A stretch of DNA of 64,000 nucleotides from a virus. The notes under the pieces were generated by a model that worked only from the letters and a program-made list of their open reading frames with translations, ran no database searches and was not told the origin of the DNA. Positions within the stretch are counted from its first letter, which is position 1. Each line of letters starts with the position of its first letter. Shown here piece by piece: positions 23,701 through 64,000 of the stretch. The DNA lies in IMG/VR virus record IMGVR_UViG_3300037042_003533, positions 19,700 through 83,699 of that record. One strand, given 5' to 3'. The position numbers and the translations under genes are program-made.

Positions 23701-23942
23701 TCGAGAAATTTGAAGGTTATTTGAAAGCAGTTGATTTTAGCAAGCTTATAGAAGGCTCCATGGCTCTAAACAGTATGAATCAAATATCAATGGTAGCCCC
23801 CTCTGCTTCTAGTAATCAACAAACTATTACCAACGACCGCCGTGTACAGGCCAATATTACCGGTGTTCCCATGGACACTGCTAGTGGTATAGTAGACATC
23901 TTGCAGCGTCAAACTAGGATGGCAGAGGTATTCCAGTCATGA
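20757..23942 (+). CDS. Tape measure protein (TP901-like)
   Basis: 1061 aa, helical, G..MTIGITAP, FE..FAGI.KTVD, AEKGGTAVSR motifs, periodic W/F repeats. Confidence 0.92.
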   Translation: MPEQIGVEVVAVGVAAFSRALRTAQDDLERFQGSILTSANSATTLGNNLISIGGNMERLGRAMTIGITAPLGILAGTLISAGIAFEDSFAGITKTVDGLGVGFDEIRNAAQSQLGIVVTNMDEARDAAAKMGISFGDLTPLGEEVRKQFREMALEIPLTASELNKFGETAGQFGVAASEIEGVTRSMAALEVATNLAGDAAGSQIIQLRNITKSSMDMSEFVNRAGSALVYLGNSSVSTESQILDATMRIAAAGDAANFTEQEMFAWGTTISDLGVRAEKGGTAVSRMINEMLIAVETGSDNLGTFAGVMGISVEDLQKMFEEDASNAIFTFTQALTTNIKAGNVSKKMLTELGLGGVRAIDVVQRLSGAQDMFTTNLDNANKSWAEGVALQEEAEKRYNTVKSQIQLTKNAFNDLGITIFDLVKGDISNLLEKIREGITWFKNLDAGLIKTILKFAGIAAAIGPVLVVLGALISAVGTVFTAIGGIPTALKLISRTLLSTLGPVGLLISGLMLLIPLLSGTGFKLNIDFSEIIDKFNGLVETVKTSLGEIVSAFANLKIGDTGLLESLQGLLDTLINSIINKITSVMEFFQDMAKGFSDTFTPFIVDKGPQIERILINVKTIVDEVRTAFEKAGAAIAAALGLNTNGTGVGEFLGALAGLAFEELLNGLEAVTGFIAKLDEGITKIAENQAVKDVISGIADSFIRIRDAAAGISVSWINGVASGFQNITNSIANSETLQSFVSLIKTLFDIISKFAWQAINDNVNNLKDAVRGFIEGITPFIQSQGPRLQQIWENLATVWERLGPLFEAIEKLAQAFEKLGAAAGINVDWETIGKFFGFLAGLVLDGIIRGIEWFTKSLIDAVSIMTILVNAGTRFVLFLQNSSGTISGVAANIGSAISRAFSPIVNLFDAARNSIDRMKETFYGVQNTINNVMWSFDMLQWKIGNVVNTAKWYLDQLGSKVQEVLRMITGSPELIIQHPFEKFEGYLKAVDFSKLIEGSMALNSMNQISMVAPSASSNQQTITNDRRVQANITGVPMDTASGIVDILQRQTRMAEVFQS

Positions 23943-35210: not shown

Positions 35211-37489
35211 AATCACCTTCCTCGGCCCACAAAGGTTTGGTTGTGTCAACTTCACTCTCATCCAGTACCTTGTGATTCCGCGCATCCTGTGCGATATGTT
35301 CAATGTCCACCAGCAATTCCTCCAAGTCTGAGGAGGATAGTACAACTGGACTAAGGGTAAAGGCCACAGGCACACCTTTGTTGTAATAGACCTCGCGAAC
35401 GCTATAAGTAATTTTGTTGTCAACGTTCTGACGTAAGACTCTGTAATTCCACACTGTTTGGGTCCTCCAAATATTTAAGATACTCTTCATCGGCAAACTG
35501 TTTCAATGCTTCTCTCACATCTTTAAGTGTAGCACATAAAGCACAATTTGTGCCAACCAATTCCCTCTTCTCACCTCGATAGGACACAAGCACCTCAGCA
35601 CATCTTATGAAAGGCTGGGCTTCAATATACCAGGCAACTATTCTACCCTTCTTGGAGCTGTGAAAGACCTTGCAGCCATCATCCAGGTAAAATAGTGTCA
35701 GATAGTAGTCTAGTTGCATGAGTCAAAGTATCCCATCAGTTCTGTTTCTGTAAATTGATCCAGCGATTGAACTAAGTCATATTTGCTGTGGCAAAAACTA
35801 GAGTTAGTTCCTAATTCCCGGTCATTCTTATTGTAAACTACCTCTAGGTTGACCCACATGAAATTTTCCCCGCATAAACTTAGGACTCTTCTGCGTTTTC
35901 GGGTGTAGAAGGTCATAACGGGCATGGTGGCATCTTTTTGTAAATCTACCCGAAAGATCGCCTTGATATTGTTTAGTATCATTCTTCCCCCATCTCTAAC
36001 ACATGAAAAACACAAGCATCACAATCACAGCCTATTTCCAGCCGTGCCTCATCCTGTGCCTCATCCCAAGTGACCCAAGACCCATTAAGCTTAAAGACCT
36101 TAACAACGTCTGGGCAACATCGGTCTGCTTCTGATCTAGTGGTATAAATATCTCCACAGACATTACACATATATCTACATGCAGGTGTCATCTTGTTCTC
36201 CTATGCTACTTGAATTACATCCCCCTGGTACCAAGGAGTGTGAATATAAGTAACAGAAACTTTATCAATCCCATTAGGGTAGTGTGGTAGTTCATCATCT
36301 GGATAGACTACTTCTAAGTTTCCGTGAATTACTTCTAGTTCTTGCAGATGTATGATCAGTTCTGATACGTTCATTTATTTTCCCCTCCCCTTAACCCATT
36401 CTATAAGTTCCTTGTCTAAGTCGTCACCCCAATCTATTGCATCTTGCAATAGATCATTAAAATCTTGTGGAAATACTTTCCCATATAAGATGGTGTGACC
36501 AATGAAGGGAGTATTCTCGAAACATCCCCAATGATCTGTTAATTCAATTGACACACTAAAACCGCCTTCAGACTTTATTATAAAGTCCCATTGTCTGTTT
36601 ATTCTCTGAATCTTTCTATCAAAGTTCATTTATCTCTCCTCTTCCATGTCCGCTCTAATTGTCCACACTAACTCACATACAAGTTTCCCGGTTTCTTCTG
36701 CATCCCAAAAATCAAATTTAGGCGTGCAAGGCAAATCCTGAAGTGAGGGGGTTTTGGAAACTTCAGTCAATAATGCTCTCTTAATATCTTCTTGATTAAA
36801 AGTTACAGTAACTTTCTTGAGTCCAACGAACTCTTTTTCTATCTCCATTTAATCCTCTAGCTTTCTATAAGGCAAATTCTAATACCTAGCCTTCGGTCTT
36901 GGGCATTATTCCATAGGCTAGATAACCAAAACGATTATCATCACTCATATCTGATTTCCGTAGCACTGCCCCCCCATTGATGTCTACACACTTTATAGTG
37001 TCAGCCAAAAACGGGAAAAGCCACAAGGGGATCAGAAATATTGGATCATCTGACCATAACCCAAAACCGAGTATCTGCATTTCATCTTTAGTTAACTCTG
37101 CTGGGTTGATGTCCCTGTACCAATCAGACCCCTTTATGCGTGCTGGAAGGTCTCGAATTTGTGAAACAGAAAAAGACTCAGACCATGAAGAGTAATTCAT
37201 AACTTCCGCTGTGGTCGATAGAATAACCAACTTAATGTGCTTGGCAATCTCAAATGTACTTTCCATCACTTTATCTCCTTATGAATTTAATCTTACCTTC
37301 GGCAATAGCTTTTAGCAGACCTATATACAAAATTTGTGTTGCTACAGCGCTTATGGTAGCAGCTAATTCAGAAGACTCTGCTTTGGAAGCAATCTTAATT
37401 ATGTTGTTCATCTCAAGATTAAGAAAGGCTGTTAAAAATTCTGACCTATCTGTTGGGCCGTGTAGAATAAGATCTTCTAAGTCACTCAT
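35200..37489 (-). CDS. Array of small hypothetical genes (35200-35454, 35420-35719, 35710-35982, 35979-36191, 36201-36374, 36375-36629, 36630-36848, 36886-37269, 37271-37489)
   Basis: Tightly coupled ORFs with RBSs; 35420-35719 and 35710-35982 are tandem paralogs (REL(V)GTN..(L/F)C). Confidence 0.6.
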
Positions 37490-38432
37490 TATCTTCTCCA
37501 AAATCATCCCACATCTCAGCCATCTCACCCAAATCCCCCCTCTTGCCGATGTATTTCTCGGTGACGACAGAGGAACTGTGACCCAAATCATCTCTCACCG
37601 TCTCAATGCTCGCTCCCCCTAACCTGCTGACCAGAGCATGACTACGCCGCAGGTCGTGAGGAGCAACACCAAATCCACACAGGGTTGAGTATTCTGTTAC
37701 AATACGGTAAATGGTCTGAGTCGTAATCTTGCCTCTCTTATTCCCATGGCGGTCATAAGACTGAATAATCCGTGCATCCTTGTCCCATGGCTCTATACAG
37801 TATTCCACCAACATTTTATACACCCAAGCAGGCAGATTGACTGTTCTGATCCGCCCGTGTTTGCCTCGGATGTCAGCAATAACGAACAACTCTCCATCTC
37901 TGCGTATCTGGCCCCAAGTCAGGTTGCAAACTTCCGACCGTCGCAAGCCACAGCCCACCAGCAACCCTAGCACTGCTCGATCCCGCAGGCCAAGCGCTGT
38001 AGTAGGGTCTGGAGCAAAACACAGGATTTCTAGTTGACTTTTAGATAGCCGCGTCCCATAAACATCCCCATGCTGGGGGATATTGCGGATGTTTTTGATG
38101 GCTATGCTGACTTCATGGTTGAAGGGCCAGCCGGTCTTGCCAATACCTAACGTAGCAGCAACTTCGAACAGCCGCCGAATGGAGGACAGTTTCTTGTTGA
38201 CAGTTGCCGGTTTGAGCTTCATATCCTCAGAGAGATACTTCCGATAGCCGGTAACAGCCGCGATGGGGTTATTAGTTCCTGATCGTAGCCACCACTGAAG
38301 AAACTCATCCACTGAAGGGCCATAGGAAAGACCAGTCAAGGCACTCACACTGTTAAGTAGAGTTTCCTTGACTGGCTCCCAGAAGGTTAAAAAGTTCTGT
38401 TCTTGTTCTGATTCGTAAACGGTGATGCTCAT
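37482..38432 (-). CDS. Tyrosine recombinase (XerC/integrase family)
   Basis: ATVNKKLSSIR SAM-like domain; RDRA..GLRRSE, GK, HDLRR, LGHSS, Y catalytic residues. Confidence 0.93.
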   Translation of the reverse strand: MSITVYESEQEQNFLTFWEPVKETLLNSVSALTGLSYGPSVDEFLQWWLRSGTNNPIAAVTGYRKYLSEDMKLKPATVNKKLSSIRRLFEVAATLGIGKTGWPFNHEVSIAIKNIRNIPQHGDVYGTRLSKSQLEILCFAPDPTTALGLRDRAVLGLLVGCGLRRSEVCNLTWGQIRRDGELFVIADIRGKHGRIRTVNLPAWVYKMLVEYCIEPWDKDARIIQSYDRHGNKRGKITTQTIYRIVTEYSTLCGFGVAPHDLRRSHALVSRLGGASIETVRDDLGHSSSVVTEKYIGKRGDLGEMAEMWDDFGEDNE

Positions 38433-38472
38433 GATAAATTCCTTGTATGTTATAGATTTATTATCTATTTAC

Positions 38473-38501
38473 AGTATAACATACAAGGGCCAGCTTGTCA
38501 A
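38473..38501 (-). promoter_or_regulatory. sigma70 promoter of the recombinase, overlapped by a 14-bp inverted repeat
   Basis: TTGACA-17-TATACT; IR at 38441-38454 / 38475-38488. Confidence 0.75.
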
Positions 38502-38665
38502 GAATCTTCTATTTCCTTAGTTTCTTTTTCAAGAGCTTCTTTAATCACAGCAATCAACCAGAAAGCATTTACAGGCTCCGTAAACCTAACTTCATATTCA
38601 TAACAAAGGTTGTCAGAGGTTGCTTGAAATGGGCTTGCGGATACCTCAAACAATATCTTAGCCAT
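38498..38665 (-). CDS. Small acidic hypothetical protein (55 aa)
   Basis: GAGG RBS, ATG at 38665, TGA at 38498; not in the supplied track. Confidence 0.5.
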   Translation of the reverse strand: MAKILFEVSASPFQATSDNLCYEYEVRFTEPVNAFWLIAVIKEALEKETKEIEDS

Positions 38666-48430: not shown

Positions 48431-48964
48431 AGTGCCCGAACTCCCTAACGAAACAAAACACACAGCACACAAGGAGTTCAATCTACTAAACGAGAGTTCG
48501 GGCACTTCGGTGCGGTACTACTACCCCATCAAACCACCTCTTGCTCGCCTAACCCGCTTCCGCACCTTGGGGCTACCAACCCCAGACCAGGCTCAGGATT
48601 TGAACCTGTTCTTCCCCCACATATGAGGGCGTGCTGCCATTACACTAAGCCCAGAAGAAAAACCACGACGGTGCCGGTATACCGGACATTTAACTCGCCT
48701 GTAAAGTAAGGTTGCCGTCCCAACCTGGCTCTTACATTTGCTGGACTGGTGGAGCAGACCAGCGATATAAATATACTACAGTCTTTCAGTCTGACCTTAG
48801 CTTCAACCCTTCCCATGCTCCCTCATTGTGAGGTCTAACGCAATCCAGTCGGCTAAGGAAAAACTGTCTATAATAAGGGGCATGTCGGTGACACTATAGA
48901 AATCATCTCACATGCTATGTTTATCCGAGGTCTTCTTGTTTCGACCATTCGCTGCCCCGTTCTT
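48431..48964 (-). ncRNA. Candidate structured non-coding RNA block / long leader
   Basis: ~530 nt without a credible ORF, downstream of a promoter, made of successive stems. Confidence 0.45.
48586..48654 (-). tRNA. Degenerate tRNA-like cloverleaf (pseudo-tRNA, anticodon not assignable)
   Basis: Acceptor CTGGGCT/AGCCTGG, TA-GTGT-AATGGCA-GCAC D arm, CAGG-TTCAAAT-CCTG T arm; 6-nt anticodon loop, 4-bp T stem, no CCA. Confidence 0.55.
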
Positions 48965-52111: not shown

Positions 52112-52175
52112 AAAAAAGAGCCCCCTGTGTACCAAACTTACATGCTAAGTAAGCCTAGTACACAGGGGGCTCTTT
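52112..52175. terminator. Bidirectional terminator
   Basis: AAAGAGCCCCCTGTGTAC / GTACACAGGGGGCTCTTT stem between convergent genes. Confidence 0.8.
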
Positions 52176-52935: not shown

Positions 52936-52981
52936 GGATTACCTCTTCATAGCTGGCAAGTAGAATTACTTGTTAGAAATC

Positions 52982-53494
52982 TTAACCTTCATCTTCAAAG
53001 TCATCAAACCAGGTAGAACCCTTCAATTCCTTGCCGAGTTCTACCTTGTTTGACGGGTTTTTGAAATCTTTACTTGTTCTCTTAATCTGATCAGGGTTAT
53101 GATTTCCGAAGTCATATTTCTCAATTCCCCAGAAATTTTCTCCCTCATCAAAGTATTTAAGCTCAAAAGAAATATTGAACTTGTTTATAAAGGCCGCTAT
53201 GATGGGATATGGAACAGACCAAGCCGTGTCAAATTTGATGAAGGCTTTGCCATTTTCCTCTCCACAAGATTGATCATAGCAATTCCACTTTGTGCCCCAG
53301 TGTGTATTATTCCAAGTGTTCCAGTTAATAGGGAAGTCCTTCTCATCAGTTGCGGATAAATCTCCCCGATAGACTTCAAGGGGGGTCGGAACTAGTGTTT
53401 TGAAGTCAAATTTCCCTTTGGGGCACACCGAGTCGAAAACCTTCTGAGACTCGTCTAAGCTGAATGTTATTTTATTCGTAACATGGTTAGGCAT
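52982..53494 (-). CDS. YubB/DUF1281-like ferredoxin-fold protein, enclosed by an inverted repeat
   Basis: MPNHV.N, FDF..LVP.P, W..W...WGTKWN, F.TAWS.P. Confidence 0.8.
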   Translation of the reverse strand: MPNHVTNKITFSLDESQKVFDSVCPKGKFDFKTLVPTPLEVYRGDLSATDEKDFPINWNTWNNTHWGTKWNCYDQSCGEENGKAFIKFDTAWSVPYPIIAAFINKFNISFELKYFDEGENFWGIEKYDFGNHNPDQIKRTSKDFKNPSNKVELGKELKGSTWFDDFEDEG

Positions 53495-53577
53495 TTTTTA
53501 TCCTTTAGCTTGCCAGCTATGAAGAGATAATCCCCTCTCGCCAGCATAGCAACTTCTGCTATGCTGGAGGCAAGAGA

Positions 53578-53760
53578 CTAGCTTCCACAATCGATATGAT
53601 CTTCAATGAGACTAAGAGTTGCCTCAAGAGCATCCTTGAATGCTACTTCCTGCCAGAATAATTCTAACTGCCTGTTGGCTTTGTACTCATTCATTCGCTC
53701 CGAGGATGAGTTGAGCCATTCTTTAATCCGACCACGACACTCTTCAATACAGTTGTGCAT
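53578..53760 (-). CDS. Hypothetical protein with its own promoter (TTGACC-17-TATACT at 53783-53811)
   Basis: AAAGGA RBS before ATG 53760. Confidence 0.6.
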   Translation of the reverse strand: MHNCIEECRGRIKEWLNSSSERMNEYKANRQLELFWQEVAFKDALEATLSLIEDHIDCGS

Positions 53761-53846
53761 TTTAGTATTCCTTTCTACTTTCAGTATAACATGCTCTTGC
53801 ATTAGGGTCAACACAGTTATTAGCTGTCAACTGGCGAGAAGGTTTC

Positions 53847-54038
53847 CTACGGTTTGTAAATCCCGTTCCCTGAGTTTCGAGACCATTGCTCATCAAGGGG
53901 AGGGGAACCATTCAGATAGTGAACTCGCTCTGCTGCTTTATCTTTGCTTTCATGGTCACTCTCAGGTTCCCATCTACCATCAGGCTGATAGAAACCAACT
54001 GTCCATAGACCAGGCTCAGATTGAACATAAACATACAT
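53847..54038 (-). CDS. Hypothetical protein (MYVY..SEPGLWTVGFY), enclosed by an inverted repeat
   Basis: GAGGT RBS; recurrent small phage protein. Confidence 0.7.
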   Translation of the reverse strand: MYVYVQSEPGLWTVGFYQPDGRWEPESDHESKDKAAERVHYLNGSPPLDEQWSRNSGNGIYKP

Positions 54039-54119
54039 AGTATCTACCTCTCTTCTCTCACCAGTTGACAGCCAAAAACACCCCCTATCCATCACTGAGT
54101 AGGGGGTTCAGTTTCCCGA

Positions 54120-55563
54120 TTAGGTACGGGTCATGCCAGCTACCCGCGCTTCACGAAGGATGCGTTGATCAAACCGGACAGCTTTGCCAGCTTCCTTGAT
54201 GATCTCAATCCGTCGGGTCGGGTTTGCTTTTGCATACCACAGTTCCTTCAACTTTGAGCGAAACTGGCTATCCCATTCCACCAGATAATCCGGGGCAGCA
54301 TAACCAGCTAACCGCTCGTGCAACTGGTAAAACTCATCCTGCGGTATTCCATTACTCCATCGTTCCATGGTAAAACTCCTCTATTTTAGGTATACCCCGT
54401 TTGGGCCGATCTGATCTTCAATGATCCGATTCATCAAAAGGGGAAATTAAACGCTTTGTGACACAGAATTTTGTGGGGGTGTTACGGGCCAGTGAACGGG
54501 TGCGTTCTTGTGGTCAACCCAAGCAACGGCTGTTACCAGAGCACATATCCAGATGCCCACCAGAATGATAGCCAGGCATACTGCTGTGAGGCACCATTCA
54601 GAAATTGTTTTGTAGGTTTGTTTTGTTTTAGACATGACAAGCTCCTTTTATAGTAGTTAATCCTACACAACTGATCCTATACAAGATAGGATCAGATGGT
54701 CTAGGATGAACTGAAGTTTATTCCACCTCATCCCGCATCGACAAGGGAATGTAGCAAGGGGCAATCATCTTCTCAGTTTCCCACTCTGACCAGCGCGTGC
54801 CGGTCATATGAGAAGTTACTCTCTCAACCTTGCCATGCAGGGTGATGATACCACAGCGCTGGTTGCCGGTGGTGTTTGTGATGGTCACAATCCGGGCGGC
54901 GATCTGGCGGTTAGGTACAATTCCATGCCCATCGTAAAACGTTGTTACAAGGCTTTCCTTCTTGATTTCTACATTGTATTTCATGGTGTGTCTCTTTTCT
55001 TTTGTATAAGATAATTTATCCAACCATGCAGCTTACACACTCATCATTGTAAGCTGCCGGGCGGGAGAAATATACCTACGCCTACCGGTTACCTACGCCT
55101 GCCGGTTACTTCAATCTTCCCATCCTGTGGGGAAACTTCCCACATGAATGGGTCACCGCTTTGTGCCTTAGTGTCATAGATTGAAGCAGGCTGACCAGTT
55201 TTTCCCGCCAGGAAACTCCCTTTCTGGAAAGCTTCCCAGCGGTTAGGCGTGGTAACAAACTGATCCCGACCTACGTTGATCTCGTATCGATGTTCGTTCA
55301 CTTTATACCTCGTATCTTGGAAGGTAGATAACCGTACCCTTACCCAAATTATCAGTAAGGGCAGACACCATAACATCACCTATCTGGTGGCGTAGCTCAC
55401 TGTCTTCTATGCCAACTATAATCTTGGCAGTAGCAGCCGATGGGCTTTCGTTGGTGGAGAATGCCAGGCATTGTTTGCCGAACATCATTCGACCAGAATA
55501 GGGGTACACCTGGTATCCTGCATTTTCAATAGCTTCCTTGAGTAGGTCAATAAAGAACTTCAC
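54120..55563 (-). CDS. Small early-type genes (54120-54368, 54447-54635 TM peptide, 54718-54984, 55089-55301, 55303-55563)
   Basis: Each has an RBS; separated by hairpins. Confidence 0.6.
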
Positions 55564-55621
55564 GATACACCTCTTTTCTGCAAGGGGATAACCCTGCTCA
55601 AACGGCGAGAGATATGTTCAG

Positions 55622-55870
55622 TTAGACAAACAACGAGCGAAACCAGGCTTTAGGACATGCGGTATCAATCCAAGCCAATGTGTGATCACAAACAGATAAC
55701 CATATCACTGCTAGGATAGCAGCAGGATAATCTTCTGTATTATCTAACCACCTGCTGGACATCTCACTGTTGGCTGGATCATCCCTCACTGCTTGGAAGA
55801 TCGCTTCTGCTTGATTAGGGAATAACCCATTATTGACCAGCTTGTCTTTAACAGCTTCCTCAAATGTCAT
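55622..55870 (-). CDS. Hypothetical protein enclosed by a perfect 20-bp inverted repeat
   Basis: ORF with AG-rich RBS; IR at 55592-55611 / 55891-55910. Confidence 0.7.
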   Translation of the reverse strand: MTFEEAVKDKLVNNGLFPNQAEAIFQAVRDDPANSEMSSRWLDNTEDYPAAILAVIWLSVCDHTLAWIDTACPKAWFRSLFV

Positions 55871-55946
55871 TTTACTTTATCTCTTTTCTACTCTCGCCGT
55901 TTGAGCAGGGGGCGATTCAGGTACACCCCGAATCGCCGCTGCTTTT

Positions 55947-56270
55947 CTACATATTTGTTAAGTATTGCCTCAGAAGGGGGGTAGGTTGGTCAATTTCTTC
56001 TTGCTGCAACACATCATCAAGGGATAGGTTGGCCGGTGGTGGGGTTCTTTTGATGTGGGCGGGGGTAAATTCTCCATCGACGTAATTCCACACTGACACA
56101 TCACCCACACAAGCCATATCCACAATAACTTGGGTGTATTGATACTTCCCAGCACAGCGCTGGCAAATATCAGCAGCTTCAAAGAGATGATCAACCTGTT
56201 TGATTGTTTCATCCAGACCGGTTTCTGCATTGTAGCCGGTTACTGTATAACGACCTTTTATTGTTCTCAT
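55947..56270 (-). CDS. Hypothetical protein
   Basis: AAAGGA RBS. Confidence 0.6.
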   Translation of the reverse strand: MRTIKGRYTVTGYNAETGLDETIKQVDHLFEAADICQRCAGKYQYTQVIVDMACVGDVSVWNYVDGEFTPAHIKRTPPPANLSLDDVLQQEEIDQPTPLLRQYLTNM

Positions 56271-56324
56271 GTTGAATCCTTTCTTATACTAAGGTTATTA
56301 CCTGCTGAGCGGTGGGAAACTAAG

Positions 56325-56528
56325 TTAGATTATCTTTAGCAAATTTTCTAAGGAGTAAATTTCTATGATGAGATCGTTTGCCTCATCTGATATTTCTACC
56401 AGACAGGCAACAGGAGTATTTTCATCCTTCATCAAATCCTCTGCCATCTGGCACAACTGCAAATGTTCTACTTTCTTGTTTGCAATGGTTTGCTTGATGG
56501 CTTCTATGTCTAATCTTAGGTTATCCAT
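56325..56528 (-). CDS. Coiled-coil hypothetical protein enclosed by an inverted repeat
   Basis: ATG 56528; IR at 56293-56320 / 56543-56570. Confidence 0.6.
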   Translation of the reverse strand: MDNLRLDIEAIKQTIANKKVEHLQLCQMAEDLMKDENTPVACLVEISDEANDLIIEIYSLENLLKII

Positions 56529-56630
56529 TGTTGCTCTTTTCTGTTTCCCACCACTCAGCAGGTAGCAACCCACACCCCGTTTTGAGACTGTTTGAAATTG
56601 AGATATGGGTTGCAATAAGAGGGAAGGGGG

Positions 56631-57365
56631 TTATTTTATTCCCCAGTTAAGGAGATAGTGAGCATTTGCTTCCTGCTCTGCGTAGTCCTTCCCTTGCTGT
56701 GCTGCTGCTGCCCGTGATTTGATAAGGGGTACAACATCCAGATAGAAGCTGTGAGGCATAATAGCCTCATCTTCTTCGATCAAGCTGGTATAGCTGTTAT
56801 CCATATACCACTCATCTTCATTATGACGGGCAATCTTATACAGTTCCAGTGCTTCAATCGGATTAGTGTTGCTCAGGATTGAAGCCTTCTCATACTGATT
56901 CTTAATCCGAGCTTTTTCTTCCAGTATATCCCTAAGAAGATCGGCCCGGTCATCTTTGCGGGAGAGGTTGAATCGCTCTGCTGCGAAGTCCACACACTCC
57001 CAAAAATCTTCCATCGTGCCCTCGTTGCCACCCAGGTAGCCCGCGATCTCTCGCATTCTGCGGTCACTCAGGTTCGAGGCATCCCAACCCTTTTCCTCAA
57101 AGTCATCACGGGATACCCGTGTAACATCAAAGAATTCCTGTTGGGTTGGCTTGGGCTCATAGTGCAAAGTTACAGCACCATTGTTAATCTGAACAAAGGG
57201 CTGAGAGTAACTATTGCTCAGCAGAAAACTGATGTGACCAAGCCTCCCAAAATAGCGGGGGGTGTAGGTTTTCTCAGTATGCCAGTTGTCCTTTGTTTCT
57301 CTCACAAAGGTTATTTCATACTTTGTACTGTGGCAAATTCTCACTTCGATAATCTTGTTTTTCAT
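56631..57365 (-). CDS. Hypothetical protein
   Basis: AAAGGT RBS, 244 aa. Confidence 0.65.
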   Translation of the reverse strand: MKNKIIEVRICHSTKYEITFVRETKDNWHTEKTYTPRYFGRLGHISFLLSNSYSQPFVQINNGAVTLHYEPKPTQQEFFDVTRVSRDDFEEKGWDASNLSDRRMREIAGYLGGNEGTMEDFWECVDFAAERFNLSRKDDRADLLRDILEEKARIKNQYEKASILSNTNPIEALELYKIARHNEDEWYMDNSYTSLIEEDEAIMPHSFYLDVVPLIKSRAAAAQQGKDYAEQEANAHYLLNWGIK

Positions 57366-57632
57366 GTTCTTACCTTTCTTTGTGTATAGGTTGTGATATG
57401 TAATTACATCTCATGAGACGTAATTATACTTCAGAGAGATAACTCTCTCATAAGACCACACCCCGTTTTGTGTGGATTGTGATCTTATGAGAAAGCCTTT
57501 CTATTTGTGTTGTATGACGTTATTATACTATTTTCCTGCCAACTGAAGTGTACCCGTTTTTAGGTACACCCCAATTGGCAGAAAGTGATCTTCGTTGATC
57601 ACCTTCTGGAGATAAGGTAGTTAATTTCAGCA

Positions 57633-57779
57633 TCACACTTGCTGAGTATATTCTGGCAGGGGGAAGTGATGAGGTGTATGTTTCAAGGTTACTGCAAGAT
57701 ACCCCACCCAGATTGTACCGGCAATAGTGGCGACCAGGATTATCACCCCGCACCATTTTATAGCAGTAGCAAATGACAT
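57633..57779 (-). CDS. 48-aa single-TM peptide, paralog of 54447-54635
   Basis: AAGGAG RBS; MSFATAIKWCGVIIL...KHTPHHFP vs KNAPVHWP; not in the supplied track. Confidence 0.6.
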   Translation of the reverse strand: MSFATAIKWCGVIILVATIAGTIWVGYLAVTLKHTPHHFPLPEYTQQV

Positions 57780-57864
57780 GATAAAAGCTCCTTTTTAGCT
57801 ATACCCCGTTTCGTAGGGGTTTGAAATTGTTATGATTGTTTCTCATAAGAAGGGCAAAGGGTTA

Positions 57865-57987
57865 CTAAAATTCTACCCTAAAATTAAACCACAGCCAATG
57901 GTAAACACCAGGGCTAGAACTAAGGGTCAATTTTCTAGGCAACCAAGAGAATTTTACATAGACCGATCTTGCTATTTGAAATCTCAT
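57865..57987 (-). CDS. 40-aa peptide enclosed by an inverted repeat
   Basis: AAAGGA RBS; MRFQIARSVYVKFSWLPRK...FRVEF; double stop; not in the supplied track. Confidence 0.6.
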   Translation of the reverse strand: MRFQIARSVYVKFSWLPRKLTLSSSPGVYHWLWFNFRVEF

Positions 57988-58112
57988 TGTAGTCTTTATC
58001 CTTTTCTATCCGTTGCCCTTCTTATGAGACACAATCATCTTAAAACCTACCATACCCCGAATCGCGCGATCTGATCCGAGGTATGATAGGGTGGTATGGT
58101 GGTAAGGGAAAG

Positions 58113-58478
58113 CTAATAGGCTTTCTTTGTGCGCTTGCAATGGCATATCTGAGTCCATTCACCATACTGGACTCCGTGCCACCAGTAACCATCAAACACA
58201 AACCAAACATCGACTCTACTGCCCGCAATGTTGTGCTTTCCCGTGTGGTAGCTCGTTGGCTCGAATTTAAGGGTACCCGACCAGTTTGTGATCTTGTAGG
58301 TATCCCGCTCTTTGGTGAGATACAGATCGATCTTGCCGGTTTCCCTCATGTCCTTCTGATCTTCAATTGCACAACAAGCATAGCATATCGGGCCGGTCTT
58401 AGATATACCGTACCCCATGCCACCACTATTCGCGAGGGACATAATTTCCTTCTTACAACTACTGCAAACGATATTCAT
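58113..58478 (-). CDS. Zinc-binding hypothetical protein
   Basis: AGAGGGG RBS; CSSC...CYACC. Confidence 0.65.
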   Translation of the reverse strand: MNIVCSSCKKEIMSLANSGGMGYGISKTGPICYACCAIEDQKDMRETGKIDLYLTKERDTYKITNWSGTLKFEPTSYHTGKHNIAGSRVDVWFVFDGYWWHGVQYGEWTQICHCKRTKKAY

Positions 58479-58537
58479 TGTAAAGCCCCTTTTTGATTTT
58501 ATTTTGTTTGTTACCTGCTCATAGGCCAGCAATGTTA

Positions 58538-58774
58538 CTAGAAGATACTATCTTCCACCTGCTCGGCTAGTGCCTCGTTGTATTCCCTTAATTCGTCTAG
58601 TATCTCATCGTATGCTTTCACGATTTGTCTATCTTCCCACGACATCGCCTTGCCGCTTACCTTTACCTCATAATAGAGTAATTGGGTATCAACATCGCCG
58701 CACGATATAAAATCGTTCATGCTTACCGAATACCCGAAAAACTTTTTGAACGCTTCACCTACTATCATTGCCAT
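58538..58774 (-). CDS. Hypothetical protein enclosed by an inverted repeat
   Basis: ATG 58774; IR at 58507-58531 / 58790-58814. Confidence 0.6.
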   Translation of the reverse strand: MAMIVGEAFKKFFGYSVSMNDFISCGDVDTQLLYYEVKVSGKAMSWEDRQIVKAYDEILDELREYNEALAEQVEDSIF

Positions 58775-58919
58775 TGCTTTACTCTTTCCTGCTGGCCTAT
58801 GAGCAAGTAACAAATTGATCCTACTCTTTGACCACCATAAGATATGATGGTCAAAGAGCAGTATCCTACCATACCCCAAAACGTGCGATCTTGTGATCAC
58901 AATCTGCAATAGTAAGGGG

Positions 58920-61900
58920 TTACTCCTCAACTAACTTTCCAGTGATGACTCCACAAGTATTGATGTAATACAGTGTCCATGGTTGCCCATAAGCATCATA
59001 GAGATCATCATGATCGGGTATACATTCCCCCCACTCCTCCACCCCCATCATACTCATGTTATCAATGCGCTTGTATGCTCGCGCAATAAGCCTTGCAATA
59101 TCTGCTTTCCAAGCTTGGCGAATTTTCCCGCGCTTAGTATACTTTGATGGATTCCAAGCATACCTTTGTGAATTTACCGGGAGAGTTTCCGGCTTTTGAT
59201 ATAATATTCGCATGATTGTTTAATCCTTTTCTCTAAAACTGCTATACGTTATTTCCTACTATTTGGGGTATAAGCATATTTTACCTATACCCCAAATAGC
59301 AGGAGTCGATCTGAATTGATCGACTCTCTGTTAGGGGAGGCGATTATCCAACCAAGCATACGTTGCAGCACTTGGCAAGGTACCGAATGTATCTTATCTG
59401 ATGTTGGGTGTAGTTGATCGAGTCAACGTCAACACTAGGATCACCATAGTTGTATATGGGCCGATTATGCTTTCCTCGGAAGATCGGTATCAATTCGGCT
59501 CGATGATATTTGTACTGCAAATTGTTGTGGTACCGTTGGCGGTACAGATCAAGATCGTTTGTCAATCGCTCATACTCAAATTGTAGTTGATCATAGGGTA
59601 TAGCGAATCGACCGGGCGCGTGCTTTGTGCAATCAATAGTGGGCCAGATCGGTCTATTTTGACGCCTAAAGGCCGCCGTCTGATAATCCCAAGGTGTAAG
59701 TCGCCAGTGTCCTTGTTTGTCCTTATATCCCATCTTATAATCCTTTGCTGATAACTAGTAGAACGTTATTTACTGCTTTCCTGCCAACTGAGGTATACCG
59801 GTTTTCGGGTATACCCCAATTGGCAGAAAGTGATCTCATCAGATCACGATCTGCTATGGGAAGGGGATTAGGACTCAGCATATCTCAGTAGATCAAGTGT
59901 GGTGCTATTCAGTGGTTTGTCACACTCAAGAATACGCATGTTACAATCCCATGATCCCGGCTGACATCTTTTGTCTTGCGCGATCTCAAGCTTTCTTAGC
60001 GCGGCATAAGCGCATTTCAGCTTGCGATGTTTGCTCACTGTCTCATAAGCACTATCTGGCGCATGAACGTGCGCCCACTTGGTTTGTTGTACTTCGAACA
60101 TTCTAGACTCCTTCTATGCTATCTTTACGTTATTTCCTGCCAATTGTGGTATAAGTATACTTTACCTATACCCCAATTGGCAGAAAGTGATCTTTTCAGA
60201 TCACGATCTGCTAAGGTAAGGGGGAAAATCTAGTCGGTTTCTTTTTCTAGCCAACCAAGATCGCCCAAAGCCTCTAAAATATCCTCTTTGTACAACCAAC
60301 CCTCATTATCCCAAGCCGAGTCAAACTCGGATTCCATCTGAGTCTTGATATAGTCAACGACGATCTCAACCCAGGACTCCGGCTTATCATCGATGGTGGC
60401 ACGAGACTCACACTTGATCGACTCTTCCATATTGCTAGAATATTCCTCATATTCCATATTGGAATAGTGATCCTCATCAGCCGCAGGATAGCCGTCAAGC
60501 TTATCTAGCCAATACAAAACACGCCTTCCGGCTTTCGTGATCCGCCCGTTCTTGGTGATCATCTTAACGGATAGGTGATCCTCCCACCCACAAGCCCAAT
60601 GGCTACAGTGATCAATGATAGTGTTTTTGGGGTGGCGCGTGATCATATCCTCACTAATTACTTCCCAGTTTGAGCGCTCCAAAACATCAGAGTCGCGATT
60701 GACTGAGAAAGTAAAGGCCCAAGTCTCACCAAGATCGGCTTCCCCGTGATAACCAAAATCGGGGATATTCTTGCTTTCTTTGACGATCTGGCGGGCGATC
60801 TCACTGTCGGTCTTATCTTGTTTGAATTGATAGAAATCTTTGTGATTCATTTTTGTTTTCCTTTATTAGCTATAGGGTATTTTCTGCTATACCCCAATTT
60901 CCGTGCCTTAAGCTTTGCATATAGGTTATGCAAGGCTTAAGGCAAGGGGCGATCTATCCTGAGATCGCCGCTTGTCTGGTATTACAGCCCATGAGACAAC
61001 TACAGCCATTCACTTCTGAGAGCATATCCGCCCGACTTGTGCATGTGCGGAGTCCGATCAGTATCCCCGTTGTGGTGCTCATTGCTGGGGCAGTGTCCAC
61101 CAGTACACTCAAAGCCATCAGGATATAGAATTGATCCCAGGGTATACACCAAGTGAAACCCCATATCCATCCCACACCCTTCCATTTTAACCCCATCATA
61201 GCTACGATTGATCGCCTTGCCAAGCAGTACACTCGCAGCATAGTTAGGGTGAATAGGGTAGCCGTCTTTGGTGATAATGACTAGTCCGATATGACGAGTC
61301 ATACCAGATCGGCTACAATGGCGCAAAATGCAGTAGATTGTATCGCCCGGCTTGACTACTGACCGTAAGAATTCCTTTTGTTCCTCTATTTCCTTATCTG
61401 AGTATTTCATCGTCTATTCCTTTGCTGATAACTAGTAGAACGTTATATTTTCCTGCCAACTGAGGTATACCCGAAAAACAAGTATACCCCAATTGGCAGA
61501 AAGTGATCTTTTCAGATCACGATCTGTTATGGTAAGGGGATTAGATATAGAATAATCCCGCGCAACCAGTAGGGCGAATCTGTGTATGTTGTTCATAAGC
61601 ACAATATCCCGCCATTTGAGCAATCAAGCAAGCTCTTTTGTATGTTATAGAATTATATTCTCTGATCCCGTTTGATCGTTCTATGTTGCAAAAATAACCA
61701 TTAGTGTAGTTGCTATACCCTACTTCAATCGCGCAAATTCTATTTTTCATTCTAGACTCCTTGCTTGCTATCTTTACGTTATTTCCTGCCAACTGAGGTA
61801 TACCGGTTTTCGGGTATACCCCAATTGGCAGAAAGTGATCTTTTCAGATCACGATCTGCTATGGTAAGGGATTATACACTTCTGGCACAAGTACACTCAG

Positions 61901-63078
61901 CAATACCCATACAGGAGCAATGGCAATCGGCCAGTGTTTTGTAGTTGTGATCCCTAAACAAAGTTTGACGCGCTTCCCATCTATGCGCTTGGCAATGCCA
62001 CAATGACACACTGATCGGCTTTCCTTCTATATCGGCTTGACTCCAATAGTGTGCAATTTTGGCATCGTAACAAAACAAACAGAAATGTCTTTCTTTTGAC
62101 AAATCCTTGAAAAACTCCCGATGTGTTTTGATGTTTATCATGAGTTTATCCTTCCATACTATCTTTACGTTATTTGTTTCCTGCCAATTGCGGTATACCA
62201 GTTTCCAGGTATACCCCAATTGGCAGAAAGTGATCCTTTCAGATCACGATCTGCTATGGTAAGGGGGGAGTATTATCTAAATGTATCTTCATAGGCAAGG
62301 GCCGTCAGAGAGTCCTGGGCTTCTTGCCACTCGTTCTCACGGTTTGACCAGCGCTTAAAGCTATTTACCCTCATTCCTATTTGGCGGGGAGTTTGACCTA
62401 TAAACTCAGGATTACCGTCCCCAGTATACCAGCCATTAGTTTTTGATCTGATATCTTGAGTAATACAAACACCATCGACAAAAACAAGTTGCTGGATACC
62501 ATGCCCACAATCTATATCTCGTTCATACACCTTGCAGTTCATTTTAAGTTTACTCCTTGCTTACTATCCGAACGTTACCCTACCCTATACGCCAATTTAC
62601 CGATGTTTGATCTTGATCCAATTGGCGCATAGGGTAAGGGGGAAATGACACAATAAATTGTGCCAGGCTTTCCCCTTACCAGCAAATTGGCTATCGCTTT
62701 GCTAGACTGGCCGTATGATCGTAGTATGACCTACTGATCACCCAACTACGCGCAATGCTCATTGTACCATACGCAGAAAAACTCAATTTCCTTGCGAGTG
62801 TTGAACATATCAATCTCGCCCGGATAACCTGATAGGTCAATATCCCCAGCATTCTGATCGTCAATTCTGATCGAATGATGGTATGACTCATCTTGCAATA
62901 CCTCAAAACTCCAATGCTTTCGAATGTTTCCCAACACTCTGATCTTCCCATCAATGTCATTGAGATCGTTTTGTTTTTCGTCAATTGCTGCTTGGCGTGC
63001 CTCTCTCAGTGTTGGGTAAGCACTAACACTATCGGGCAAGTATCCATCTTGCCCTACTTGCACAAAATATACTTTCAT
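58920..63078 (-). CDS. Cassette-like early genes (58920-59213, 59344-59733, 59868-60101, 60230-60850, 61000-61410, 61541-61750, 61872-62141, 62273-62542, 62746-63078)
   Basis: One ORF, nearly all with an AAGGA-type RBS, between consecutive copies of the intergenic element. Confidence 0.7.
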
Positions 63079-63263
63079 CTTATCTCACTTTCTTGTGATA
63101 TGTTTCACAAACTCCAAACATGAGCAATTGCTCATATTCCCGGTATACCCTAGAAGGGGAATACCTTACCATACCCCAAAACGTACAAAAGTGTTTTGAG
63201 CTATGGTAAGGTGAGAAGGGTATTACTCTGCCCTTCTCTATCCTTACTGATGGCCGAATGATG

Positions 63264-63731
63264 CTATGCAACCTTGGCTACTTTCTTTGCCTCATTGTTA
63301 CGCATATTTAGCAACCATTTCACCATGTCCGATTCAGACCGGCTATCCTTGTGCCACTTATCAATCAATCGTTGTTCTGTTGCACTAAGTGCTCCCAGGG
63401 TGACGATTGTGGACACTGTAGACACTGTGGCAGGCTTGGCTACTGCTGGGGTTACTTCAGTTTTGGCAGCCACAACAACAGGCTTGGCGATCTTTGCTGG
63501 CATTAGGGGGAGAGTGTATTGTTTCCCGTCAAGCTTGATCGTCAGAGTCTCGATTGTACTCTGATATGCCAAATTTTGGGCTTCCAGGTACTTAATGTAG
63601 GTTTCAGCCTTGCTACCCCAGCGGTGAAGCGCCTTACCCTGTTTTTGTGCTCTGTAGAGCTTATCTTGCGTATCCAGCAAAGCACCAAGCAGAGCTAAAC
63701 TGACTATGACTAAAATAACGTTTGCGATCAT
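63264..63731 (-). CDS. Membrane-anchored coiled-coil protein
   Basis: AAGGAG RBS; N-terminal TM helix. Confidence 0.7.
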   Translation of the reverse strand: MIANVILVIVSLALLGALLDTQDKLYRAQKQGKALHRWGSKAETYIKYLEAQNLAYQSTIETLTIKLDGKQYTLPLMPAKIAKPVVVAAKTEVTPAVAKPATVSTVSTIVTLGALSATEQRLIDKWHKDSRSESDMVKWLLNMRNNEAKKVAKVA

Positions 63732-64000
63732 TGTAAACTCCTTGTGTTTTAATAATTTAGGACGTTATTATTTAAGATACTTAATTTTATAGTATCTTGG
63801 CAGTAGACAAACACTAGAAAGATCAAAACTCAGCTAACCATAGGCGATATAGGTCAATCTGACTCTGGTAATACTCAATCGCTGGTAAGTTTTGCACTTG
63901 CTGCGAATGAGCTAACAGAGTCTCAAAATTGGCTAGACTGTCGACTATCATGGTCTTTGTGTAGATTGTCATTTTGCTACACCCAAAAGTAGGCTAAAAA

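Follow-up and report, generated by a model that had tools for sequence, protein, structure and literature searches.

A repeated double-hairpin element between the small genes of an uncultured phage as a candidate RNA-processing site

Results

The window, a stretch of 64,000 nt from the 83.7-kb genome of an uncultured phage, contains an array of small minus-strand genes and hairpin-bearing spacers at 57.5-62.3 kb. The genes share this orientation, occupy the part of the leftward arm nearest its promoter, and precede the replication genes. Thirteen small, mutually unrelated ORFs (48-206 aa), all on the minus strand between 57633 and 63731, make up the cassette genes: 63264-63731, 62746-63078, 62273-62542, 61872-62141, 61541-61750, 61000-61410, 60230-60850, 59868-60101, 59344-59733, 58920-59213, 58538-58774, 58113-58478, and 57633-57779. 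They are ORFans to which no function is assigned; one of the proteins is matched by 344 homologues (40-60% identity) from unrelated contigs.

An element of about 100 nt recurs between these genes in seven full copies and one half-degenerate copy, all on the minus strand and in the same orientation as the genes. A 26-nt core, allowing at most one mismatch, occurs six times and not once in 100 shuffles. A covariance model trained on the copies gave seven full-length matches, every one of them on the minus strand (E 1e-32 to 7e-23), as well as the half-degenerate copy (58810-58922, E 6e-6), with no further copies elsewhere in the 83.7-kb genome, in agreement with a preliminary description that had counted seven clear copies plus degenerate ones. 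The element fills the gap between genes, starting 1-7 nt past a stop codon and stopping about 25-30 nt short of the following ATG. Its order is stop codon, a C-rich box (CCCCTTACC) beginning 1-7 nt after the stop in most spacers, a GTGATC-N6-GATCAC hairpin (6 bp in the canonical copies), a 22-bp stem, TAACGT, leader, RBS, and ATG. This layout is as previously claimed except at 57517, where the C-rich box is missing and about 150 nt of additional hairpins precede the gene. Similarity among the canonical copies is 70-97% within this single genome, so that much of the apparent conservation reflects recent duplication or gene conversion, and the independent evidence comes from the two divergent copies and the non-homologous analogues.

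Canonical copy 1 (62167-62272, E 6e-31) has the box, the short GATC hairpin, the 22-bp hairpin at 62178-62229, and TAACGT at 62167-62172, followed by leader A' (62142-62166) and the gene at 61872-62141. In copy 2 (61776-61871, E 1e-32), the short hairpin lies at 61835-61852, the 22-bp hairpin at 61783-61834, and TAACGT at 61776-61781, with leader A in front of the gene at 61541-61750. Copy 5 (59763-59867) has the same long hairpin as copy 2, then an 8-nt extra spacer and leader B before the gene at 59344-59733. The loop of copy 3 (61440-61540; leader B, gene 61000-61410) is T-rich, an inversion of the loop found in copies 2 and 5, and the apex of copy 4 (60127-60229; leader A, gene 59868-60101) resembles that of the 59246 copy. 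The latter, divergent copy 6 (59246-59343, E 7e-23), combines a 9-bp short with a 19-bp long hairpin and is followed by leader C and the gene at 58920-59213. In divergent copy 7 (57517-57632, E 9e-26) the apex pair has changed from A-U to G-C; downstream lie an 18-bp hairpin (57443-57495) and a palindrome, then the gene at 56631-57365.

The same order, a short GATC hairpin followed by a hairpin of 20-23 bp, recurs with unrelated sequence in two spacers, which, like the two further spacers described below, read on the minus strand. The half-degenerate copy (58778-58919, E 6e-6) retains the box, the GATC hairpin, and GGGGTAT, has an unrelated 23-bp hairpin (58817-58865) in place of the long stem, and next has one arm, the 5' one, of a stem that brackets a gene (58790-58814). 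The non-homologous spacer at 60851-60999 carries an 8-bp GATC hairpin (60940-60963), a 21-bp hairpin (60901-60947), and then a GGGGTAT hairpin. A variant at 62543-62745 places the box within a 12-bp hairpin (62633-62680), followed by a 20-bp hairpin (62578-62639) with two sense-strand G-U pairs, TAACGT (62572-62577), and an A-like leader before the gene at 62273-62542. Further upstream, the spacer at 63079-63263 has a box, CCTTACCATA, that pairs with GGGGTATGGTAAGG, and no canonical long stem. Private inverted repeats of 20-29 bp bracket six neighboring genes; the arms of the element can pair locally, as the 22-bp hairpin, or across a gene, the 5' arm with the 3' arm of the next copy (up to 28 bp). 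Genome-wide, we find 28 stems against 1-5 in shuffles. Stem lengths fall mainly between 18 and 29 bp (mode 22). Except for G-U pairs and no more than one mismatch, the helices are uninterrupted, without an internal loop or bulge.

Covariation, named as a check in the preliminary description, is present. In the alignment of the copies 97% of pair cells are paired, five pairs are changed on both sides (a number reached by 1 of 500 shuffles), and the covariation score is 0.204 versus 0.112. As described before, the long stem of the 61776 copy is fully paired (22 bp, three G-U on the sense strand, no mismatch), and the 59246 copy has compensatory changes in both stems, its short stem contributing two more compensatory pairs that are offset by the alignment. 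In each of the six canonical copies the sense strand folds with a stability advantage of 3-6.5 kcal/mol over the antisense strand, and the covariance model scores 81-113 bits on the sense strand versus 33-46 on the antisense. At non-Watson-Crick positions of independent stems at 52-63 kb of the window, about 17 are G-T on the coding strand and 1-2 on the other, a bias with a binomial p of about 7e-4 by our own arithmetic. The stem at 60901-60947 is an exception, with a wobble that favors the antisense strand, where it also folds better. Covariation, the sense-strand wobble bias and stability, and the identical architecture of non-homologous spacers thus support the element acting as a coding-strand structure.

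The 5' arm is identical in six copies while the 3' arm varies. A strand-specific word, GGGGTRT, has 18 coding-strand occurrences within 10 kb versus 6 in the other 73.7 kb. GATC is 3.9-fold enriched in the array, with a pair or triple in every spacer. Nearly all spacers contain both the GGGGTRT word and clustered GATC.

Promoter-like matches in the array equal the shuffled expectation (22 vs 22.0; best 9/12), and terminator-like matches show no excess over shuffles (9 vs 7.0 expected). No U-tract follows the 22-bp stem; only the short hairpin of the 59246 copy was flagged as terminator-like. The spacing from stem to TAACGT varies from 0 to 9 nt, with no consistent -35/-10 geometry. The strong promoters of the phage itself, TTGACA-N17-TATACT, are present in five copies, all outside the array. 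A described repeat family, the possibility raised earlier, did not emerge from Rfam, where the sole overlap was a chance-level miRNA (24.6 bits vs a gathering score of 211), and no element homologues were found in IMG/VR or a metagenome scan. The phage genome encodes neither RNase III nor an integron integrase. Its only tyrosine recombinase (37482-38432) scores 21.9 bits versus the TIGR02249 cut-off of 265 and is a generic Xer-like enzyme; the gene lies 20 kb from the array and has its own promoter.

The leaders of several copies are shared. As had been noted, near-duplicates stand in front of unrelated genes: 59726-59769 and 61403-61446 are 89% alike, and 60099-60153 and 61748-61802 are 91% alike. 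Leader A precedes three or four unrelated genes and leader B two. Homology between copies stops at TAACGT, at ATG, or at the stop codon, and at 9/9 TAACGT sites it breaks off right after the word.

For comparison we used a single syntenic relative, G001, which is not the closest relative that exists. More than 30 structural and replication genes are common to both genomes, against a single array gene, so that, on this comparison, the array appears hypervariable. Its gene junctions are tight, with no stem excess (5 vs 3-5 in shuffles) and none of the array hairpins, and the Xer-like recombinase gene is missing. Since G001 has no such stems, the hairpin design is dispensable for this phage type.

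Discussion

We give a probability of about one half to the element being a cis-acting intercistronic structure of a polycistronic early mRNA that serves for RNase III-type processing and stabilization and, secondarily, for gene exchange. By analogy, it would most likely be a lineage-specific version of the design known from phage T7. Host RNase III, whose presence we assume, would cut the continuous 22-bp helix and separate the neighboring cistrons. The short GATC hairpin would remain on the upstream message, where it would shield the newly made 3' end from exonucleases, although a protective role for so weak a 6-bp hairpin is uncertain, and the downstream message would begin with the unstructured TAACGT-leader-RBS. 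Cleavage would also strip the C-rich post-stop box, for which pairing with the Shine-Dalgarno sequence of the next gene is predicted; the predicted unpaired probability of that sequence is 0.09-0.61 when the spacer is intact and 0.66-0.85 once the 3' arm has been cut.

RNase III processing sites lie between the early genes of T7 and T3 (R0.3, R0.5, R1.1, and others), and SP82/SPO1 early RNA has conserved Bs-RNase III sites. Like these, the stem-loops described here stand between cistrons of a phage early transcript (a presumed one in our case), have a helix of about two turns with structure conserved on the mRNA strand, and would leave the upstream message with a 3'-terminal hairpin. The internal loop of T7 sites leads to one cut. 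Here cleavage is itself a prediction, and the helix is continuous, interrupted by wobbles only; a double cut would therefore be expected, removing the apex. The unit also differs in adding the short GATC hairpin, the post-stop box, and the TAACGT word, and in having near-identical copies confined to one array. The long stems, at 22 bp on the mRNA strand, have the roughly two-turn helix (about 20-22 bp) of RNase III sites, and the idealized E. coli RNase III substrate is a helix of 22 bp, or two helical turns (PMC3867540). What an RNase III model leaves unexplained is the invariant 5' arm together with the GGGGTRT and GATC words, a pattern that points to a sequence-specific partner.

As for exchange, about 100-130 nt are common to the flanks of many unrelated genes and may therefore offer homology for recombination, by which genes could be gained, lost, or replaced as units. 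The modular exchange unit proposed in the preliminary description draws support from the shared leaders, the ends of homology, and the hypervariability relative to G001, but the copy-to-copy pattern is also compatible with one tree plus one block replacement. From these sequence patterns we regard the copies as plausible exchange units.

A site acting at the DNA level, either as regulator-binding words or as single-stranded hairpins recognized by an Xer-like recombinase in an integron-like cassette system, is unlikely. The invariant 5' arm and enriched words would suit it, and the 'stoperators' of cluster A mycobacteriophages are an analogue of co-oriented regulator-binding sites. The homology break after TAACGT looks like a crossover point, the encoded recombinase is absent from the hairpin-less G001, the inverted loop of copy 3 is a DNA-level event, and the G-T asymmetry would fit a fold of the single coding DNA strand as well as one of RNA. 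However, the recombinase is distant and generic, the element has no RYYYAAC/GTTRRRY boxes, extrahelical bases, or unpaired central spacer, and the non-homologous stems have no common core at their base. Copies 4, 6, and 7 break the GGTATACC palindromes yet keep arm pairing, partly via G-U, which is not what a dimeric DNA binder requires. Leaders common up to the ATG likewise misfit cassettes bounded at TAACGT. Unlikely, too, is a palindromic repeat of selfish or neutral character (REP/MITE-like, or a quasi-palindrome that template switching keeps perfect) that spread through the array by duplication and gene conversion without a role for the phage. Near-identical copies in one lineage, with the stem excess here and not in G001, the lack of homologues in IMG/VR or the metagenome scan, and the palindrome dynamics seen in the loop inversion fit this, but 8/8 copies share one orientation and keep a fixed register to the stop and start codons, and none falls inside a gene. 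Wobble pairs persist uncorrected on one strand, and other spacers build the same architecture from unrelated sequence.

It is quite improbable that each element combines a terminator or attenuator with an early promoter, making every small gene its own transcription unit, as in a PeSL-type cassette. TTGGCA in the 3' arm with TAACGT (T1, A2, and T6 of a -10) is weakly promoter-like and UUUCU follows the short hairpin, but the irregular spacing, a best match no better than shuffles, the near-consensus promoters elsewhere, and the missing U-tract speak against it. The setting is nonetheless similar: T4-type PeSLs are repeated composite intergenic elements that flank ORFans in a hyperplastic, hypervariable region and have been proposed to supply the homology by which cassettes are gained, lost, or replaced (PMC2839356, PMC4122927). 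The element described here differs from them in having no sigma-70 promoter and no terminator signature. Just as improbable is a primarily translational device, in which the C-rich box masks the next RBS across the hairpins and the terminating upstream ribosome opens the mask with no cleavage. The box is well placed behind the stop codon, MFE folds pair it with the SD or AUG region in five of six canonical copies, and in the 62578 variant it is itself an arm of a stem ending at TAACGT. Yet the pairing is short (4-9 bp), copy-dependent, and only modest in its occlusion (four copies are 0.4-0.6 unpaired), complementarity to a purine-rich SD is expected of any C/U-rich box from its composition, and the need for a 22-bp helix is left unexplained.

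Integron attC arrays and CALINs, such as the Vibrio cholerae repeats, also have co-oriented, small, promoterless, mostly ORFan genes, each followed by a homogeneous dyad-symmetric element of about 100 nt. The integron likeness drawn earlier nevertheless failed on every specific feature tested, namely IntI, R/L boxes, extrahelical bases, and central spacer. For the R''/R' boxes (RYYYAAC ... GTTRRRY), AAATAAC and GTTATTT misfit on inspection, the element ends being non-complementary and the stem continuous. The favored strand here is the coding strand, and leaders are common up to the ATG. We hold it very improbable that the hairpin units are joints of a phage gene-cassette system, releasing end-paired single-gene messages and marking sites of gene insertion and excision, possibly with the Xer-like recombinase acting on folded single strands. 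Such a system, if real, would resemble an integron but lack both IntI and attC.

REP/BIME or MITE-like mobile palindromes are dispersed, found in either orientation, and placed without regard to gene register; the eight copies here sit in one array and one orientation. The SAS/ESAS of cluster K mycobacteriophages includes a 17-bp imperfect inverted repeat with a variable 4-13-nt spacer, upstream of the start-associated sequence (PMC3203893). The sequences are unrelated, the second hairpin and the post-stop box are additions here, and SAS contains the RBS (PMC3203893), in contrast to TAACGT, which stands 25-30 nt ahead of the ATG. In both, an inverted repeat (17 bp in SAS/ESAS, 22 bp in the phage element) stands just upstream of a conserved start-associated word, in one orientation and before a subset of genes, and its left arm is better conserved than its right (PMC3203893).

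Copies and layout of the hairpin element

The small minus-strand genes at 57.5-62.3 kb of the window are separated by copies of a double-hairpin element, and this array is real: a 26-nt core occurs six times, versus 0 in 100 shuffles, and a repeat search returned an 89-nt family whose members are 69-100% identical to the reference copy. Seven copies were used to build a covariance model, which was searched against the whole genome. It recovered all seven clear copies named in the preliminary description (E 1e-32 to 7e-23), every one on the minus strand, with sense-strand scores of 81-113 bits versus 33-46 bits for the antisense strand. Degenerate copies had also been proposed, and the model added one that is half-degenerate (58810-58922, E 6e-6). 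Reading the spacers on the coding strand confirmed the order stop codon, box, hairpin, hairpin, TAACGT, ribosome-binding site and ATG. The C-rich box (CCCCTTACC) begins 1-7 nt past the stop codon and is followed by GTGATC-N6-GATCAC and then by a 22-bp hairpin whose loop is 8-14 nt; TAACGT follows the long hairpin after 0-9 nt and leads into a 25-30-nt leader, which carries the Shine-Dalgarno sequence and ends at the ATG. The copy at 57517 has the hairpins but lacks the box, and further hairpins lie where a gene had been placed directly downstream.

Leaders are duplicated in front of unrelated genes, as first noticed, with one shared segment between TAACGT and ATG (leader A) preceding three or four genes and another (leader B) preceding two. 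No similarity was found among the 19 array proteins, and paralogy among the cassette genes was rejected because these proteins are mutually dissimilar. The likeness of the canonical copies may reflect recent duplication. The T-rich loop of the copy at 61440 (61462-61476, ...TTGTTTTTCGG...) resembles the reverse complement of the loops in the copies at 61776 and 59763 (CGAAAACC; 61805-61812 and 59800-59807), the hairpin apex being inverted in flip/flop fashion. Logan contigs were available from X1, a DNA sequencing run from which the assembly probably derives. These contigs end at each canonical repeat, and neither alternative joints nor loose ends are reported; cassette order between near-identical copies is therefore the order given by the assembly alone. 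Logan per-contig word depth (59800-63900) steps from 15.7 to 8.7 across the array, a trend that may stem from differences in cassette content within the population or may mean nothing.

Genomic setting

The window is the final 64 kb of a virus record in IMG/VR; the record is 83,699 bp long and is rated as linear and 97% complete. The phage is siphovirus-like. Its structural genes are on the plus strand (tape measure at 20757-23942), and a leftward arm encodes PolA, DnaB, primase, a methyltransferase and an Xer-like tyrosine recombinase. The array lies at the promoter-proximal end of this arm, 1.4 kb from the right end of the record, in a series of roughly 19 small genes on the minus strand (54.7-63.7 kb). 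PolA is at most 29% identical to that of any INPHARED phage, and the phage therefore has no cultured relative. An ARAGORN search reported a tRNA-like gene at 48585-48654 with a two-base undetermined 'anticodon'.

The element is a strand-specific structure

Compensatory changes had been described for the copy at 59246, and both of its stems are indeed rebuilt from other bases; in the copy at 57517, an apical A-U has become G-C and a G-U has been added. The covariation check agrees, with 97% of pair cells paired in the seven-copy alignment. Both-sided changes occur at five pairs, a count reached by 1 of 500 shuffles, and pairing falls to 35-48% when partners are slid by 1-3 columns. The sense RNA folds better than the antisense RNA by 3-6.5 kcal/mol in all six canonical copies, while one analogue spacer prefers the antisense strand. 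In a tally of independent stems and events, about 17 non-Watson-Crick positions are G-T on the coding strand and one or two on the other strand; base composition predicts no such bias. The G-T bias would equally fit folded coding-strand DNA. Stems of at least 16 bp number 28 in this genome, 23 of which fall within 52.1-62.6 kb; shuffled sequences contain 1-5. The stem lengths group near 22 bp, and an idealised E. coli RNase III substrate has a helix of that length (PMC3867540). At 52115-52175, sub-threshold Rfam matches to miRNA and PK-repBA models were obtained for a perfect 18-bp hairpin.

The architecture is maintained where the sequence differs. An unrelated 8-bp GATC hairpin is followed by an unrelated 21-bp hairpin in the spacer at 60851-60999; the spacer at 58778-58919 retains box, GATC hairpin and GGGGTAT around a different 23-bp hairpin; and at 62543-62745 a 20-bp stem reaching to TAACGT has the box as one of its arms. 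Within 52936-58814, six genes have an inverted repeat of their own, 20-29 bp long, with one arm on either side of the gene and pairing on the coding strand; 58507-58531 pairs with 58790-58814, for example, as does 55592-55611 with 55891-55910. The arms of adjacent canonical copies can likewise pair across the intervening gene (61450-61477 with 61807-61834, 28 bp).

Other identities for the element

The arms contain palindromic words (CCAATTGG, GGTATACC) that decay in the 3' arm and in the divergent copies with pairing retained, which argues against two dimeric DNA operators; a pair of independent GGTATACC operator palindromes was rejected because the divergent copies preserve arm-to-arm pairing and not the palindromes. 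Sigma-70 promoter-like and intrinsic terminator-like matches in the element equal the shuffled expectation, and no U-tract follows the long stem. The five near-consensus promoters of the phage (TTGACA-N17-TATACT) all lie outside the array, and the spacing from stem to TAACGT varies, so that no fixed -35/-10 pair exists; sigma-70 promoters and intrinsic terminators in the element were both rejected. The check for a described repeat family found no match in Rfam, and an Rfam family was rejected on that ground. CRISPR-like and tRNA-like identities were rejected as well.

The comparison to an integron did not hold. The Xer-like recombinase (37482-38510 region, 316 aa, about 20 kb from the array) was rejected as an integron integrase at 21.9 versus 265 bits for the integron-integrase model and is a generic enzyme, and the element has no R boxes, extrahelical bases or central spacer. 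The recombinase gene stands behind one of the five near-consensus promoters, has a 13-14-nt inverted repeat overlapping its -10 box and start region, and has no counterpart in the syntenic relative G001.

Proposed function

The best-supported reading is that the element is an RNA-level intercistronic unit. Of the processing or stabilising element proposed earlier, the coding-strand structure is supported; the cutting and stabilising steps we infer. Host RNase III would cut the two-turn helix, the upstream message would keep the short hairpin as a 3' cap, and the downstream message would begin with an open leader. The cut would also detach the C-rich box, the predicted partner of the next gene's Shine-Dalgarno sequence. 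In partition-function folding of the intact spacer, the Shine-Dalgarno sequence is predicted to be 0.09-0.61 unpaired because the post-stop box pairs with it, and after a cut in the 3' arm the prediction is 0.66-0.85 unpaired. Neither a phage-encoded RNase III nor a Dam methylase was detected in the genome. A T7-type RNA polymerase gene was also sought; no match was obtained, but this search is uninformative, since the controls matched nothing either.

The principle is not new, having close precedents in the processing sites of T7, the PeSLs of T4 and the ESAS of mycobacteriophages. By analogy, the element would work most like the RNase III sites of T7/T3 (and SP82/SPO1). Its setting is similar to that of T4-type PeSLs (PMC2839356, PMC4122927), and its anatomy to that of cluster K ESAS/SAS repeats, including a better-kept left arm (PMC3203893).

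If this RNA-level reading is true, early accessory genes here follow a compact modular grammar of post-stop box, protective hairpin, two-turn processing helix and leader. A small gene placed between two units would need no signals of its own for expression, processing and stabilisation, and the same units would supply homology for swapping such genes. RNA processing would thereby be tied to accessory-gene turnover in an uncultured phage clade, accessory genes being where host-takeover and anti-defence functions are usually found. The element could also be tried directly as a portable insulator in synthetic operons.

Relatives and possible gene exchange

Megablast and blastn detected no close DNA relative among INPHARED phages, and an exact 23-mer had no match in IMG/VR. 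A 20-mer gave three single matches in metagenome contigs, which we take as chance since none has covariance-model support; two degenerate architecture patterns gave single chance matches in IMG/VR, with model scores of 18 bits at best. An unrelated IMG/VR phage contig (L123, 5314-5392) was picked up only because it shares GGTATACC with the element; its three tandem TTTACGGTATACCGTTA palindromic sites, 29-33 nt apart, look like a typical operator array.

The array proteins are singletons at 90% identity. PolA relatives form a clade at 54-63% identity on 77-84-kb contigs, absent from IMG/VR, GTDB genomes and INPHARED. G001 (PolA 40%, capsid 68%) is the only relative with readable DNA. It has more than 30 genes in common with this phage, and from the array only the 206-aa gene; its junctions are tight, with no match to the model and no stem excess. 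The 136-aa Cys/His-rich cassette protein (61000-61410) belongs to phrog_12365, a family of unknown function, and has 344 homologues at 40-60% identity from marine and other metagenomes, on unrelated contigs of many sizes. A 1.6-kb ENA contig carries a copy that is 90% identical. The array is accordingly hypervariable relative to G001 and of mixed origin, with a hairpin design specific to this lineage.

As for the suggestion that the element is a modular exchange unit, the sharing of leaders stands, and homology between spacers stops at TAACGT, ATG or the stop codon. A four-gamete reading of the seven copies did not prove recombination at the elements: the states can be fitted by a tree in which the leader was replaced once as a block.

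Sequence words and a possible partner

Some features are left over by the RNA-processing model and point to a sequence-specific partner, namely the 5' arm, GGGGTRT, TAACGT and an excess of GATC. The 5' arm and TAACGT are invariant. GGGGTRT occurs 18 times on the coding (minus) strand of 54000-64000, in nearly every spacer whatever the hairpin sequence, versus 3 times on the other strand of that interval and 6 times in the coding strand's remaining 73.7 kb. A Chi-like role for it was rejected by reasoning only: entry from the nearby genome end would call for the opposite orientation. No 4-mer is more enriched in the array (58000-63300) than GATC, which has 78 sites there where the remainder of the genome predicts 20.2, a 3.9-fold excess (13-17 per kb versus about 3.6 per kb elsewhere). 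The excess spans spacers and cassette coding regions, with 12 sites within the gene at 60230-60850, and no extended context motif was found around the array sites.

The phage genome as a whole shows extreme avoidance of 6-bp palindromes (0 seen versus 6-23 expected), including TTTAAA, CTGCAG, CAGCTG, CGATCG, GCCGGC, ATGCAT, CCCGGG, GAGCTC and CTCGAG, and GATATC occurs once versus 22 expected. CAATTG, GTATAC, TGATCA and GATC are not avoided. This avoidance points to a host with many type II restriction systems.
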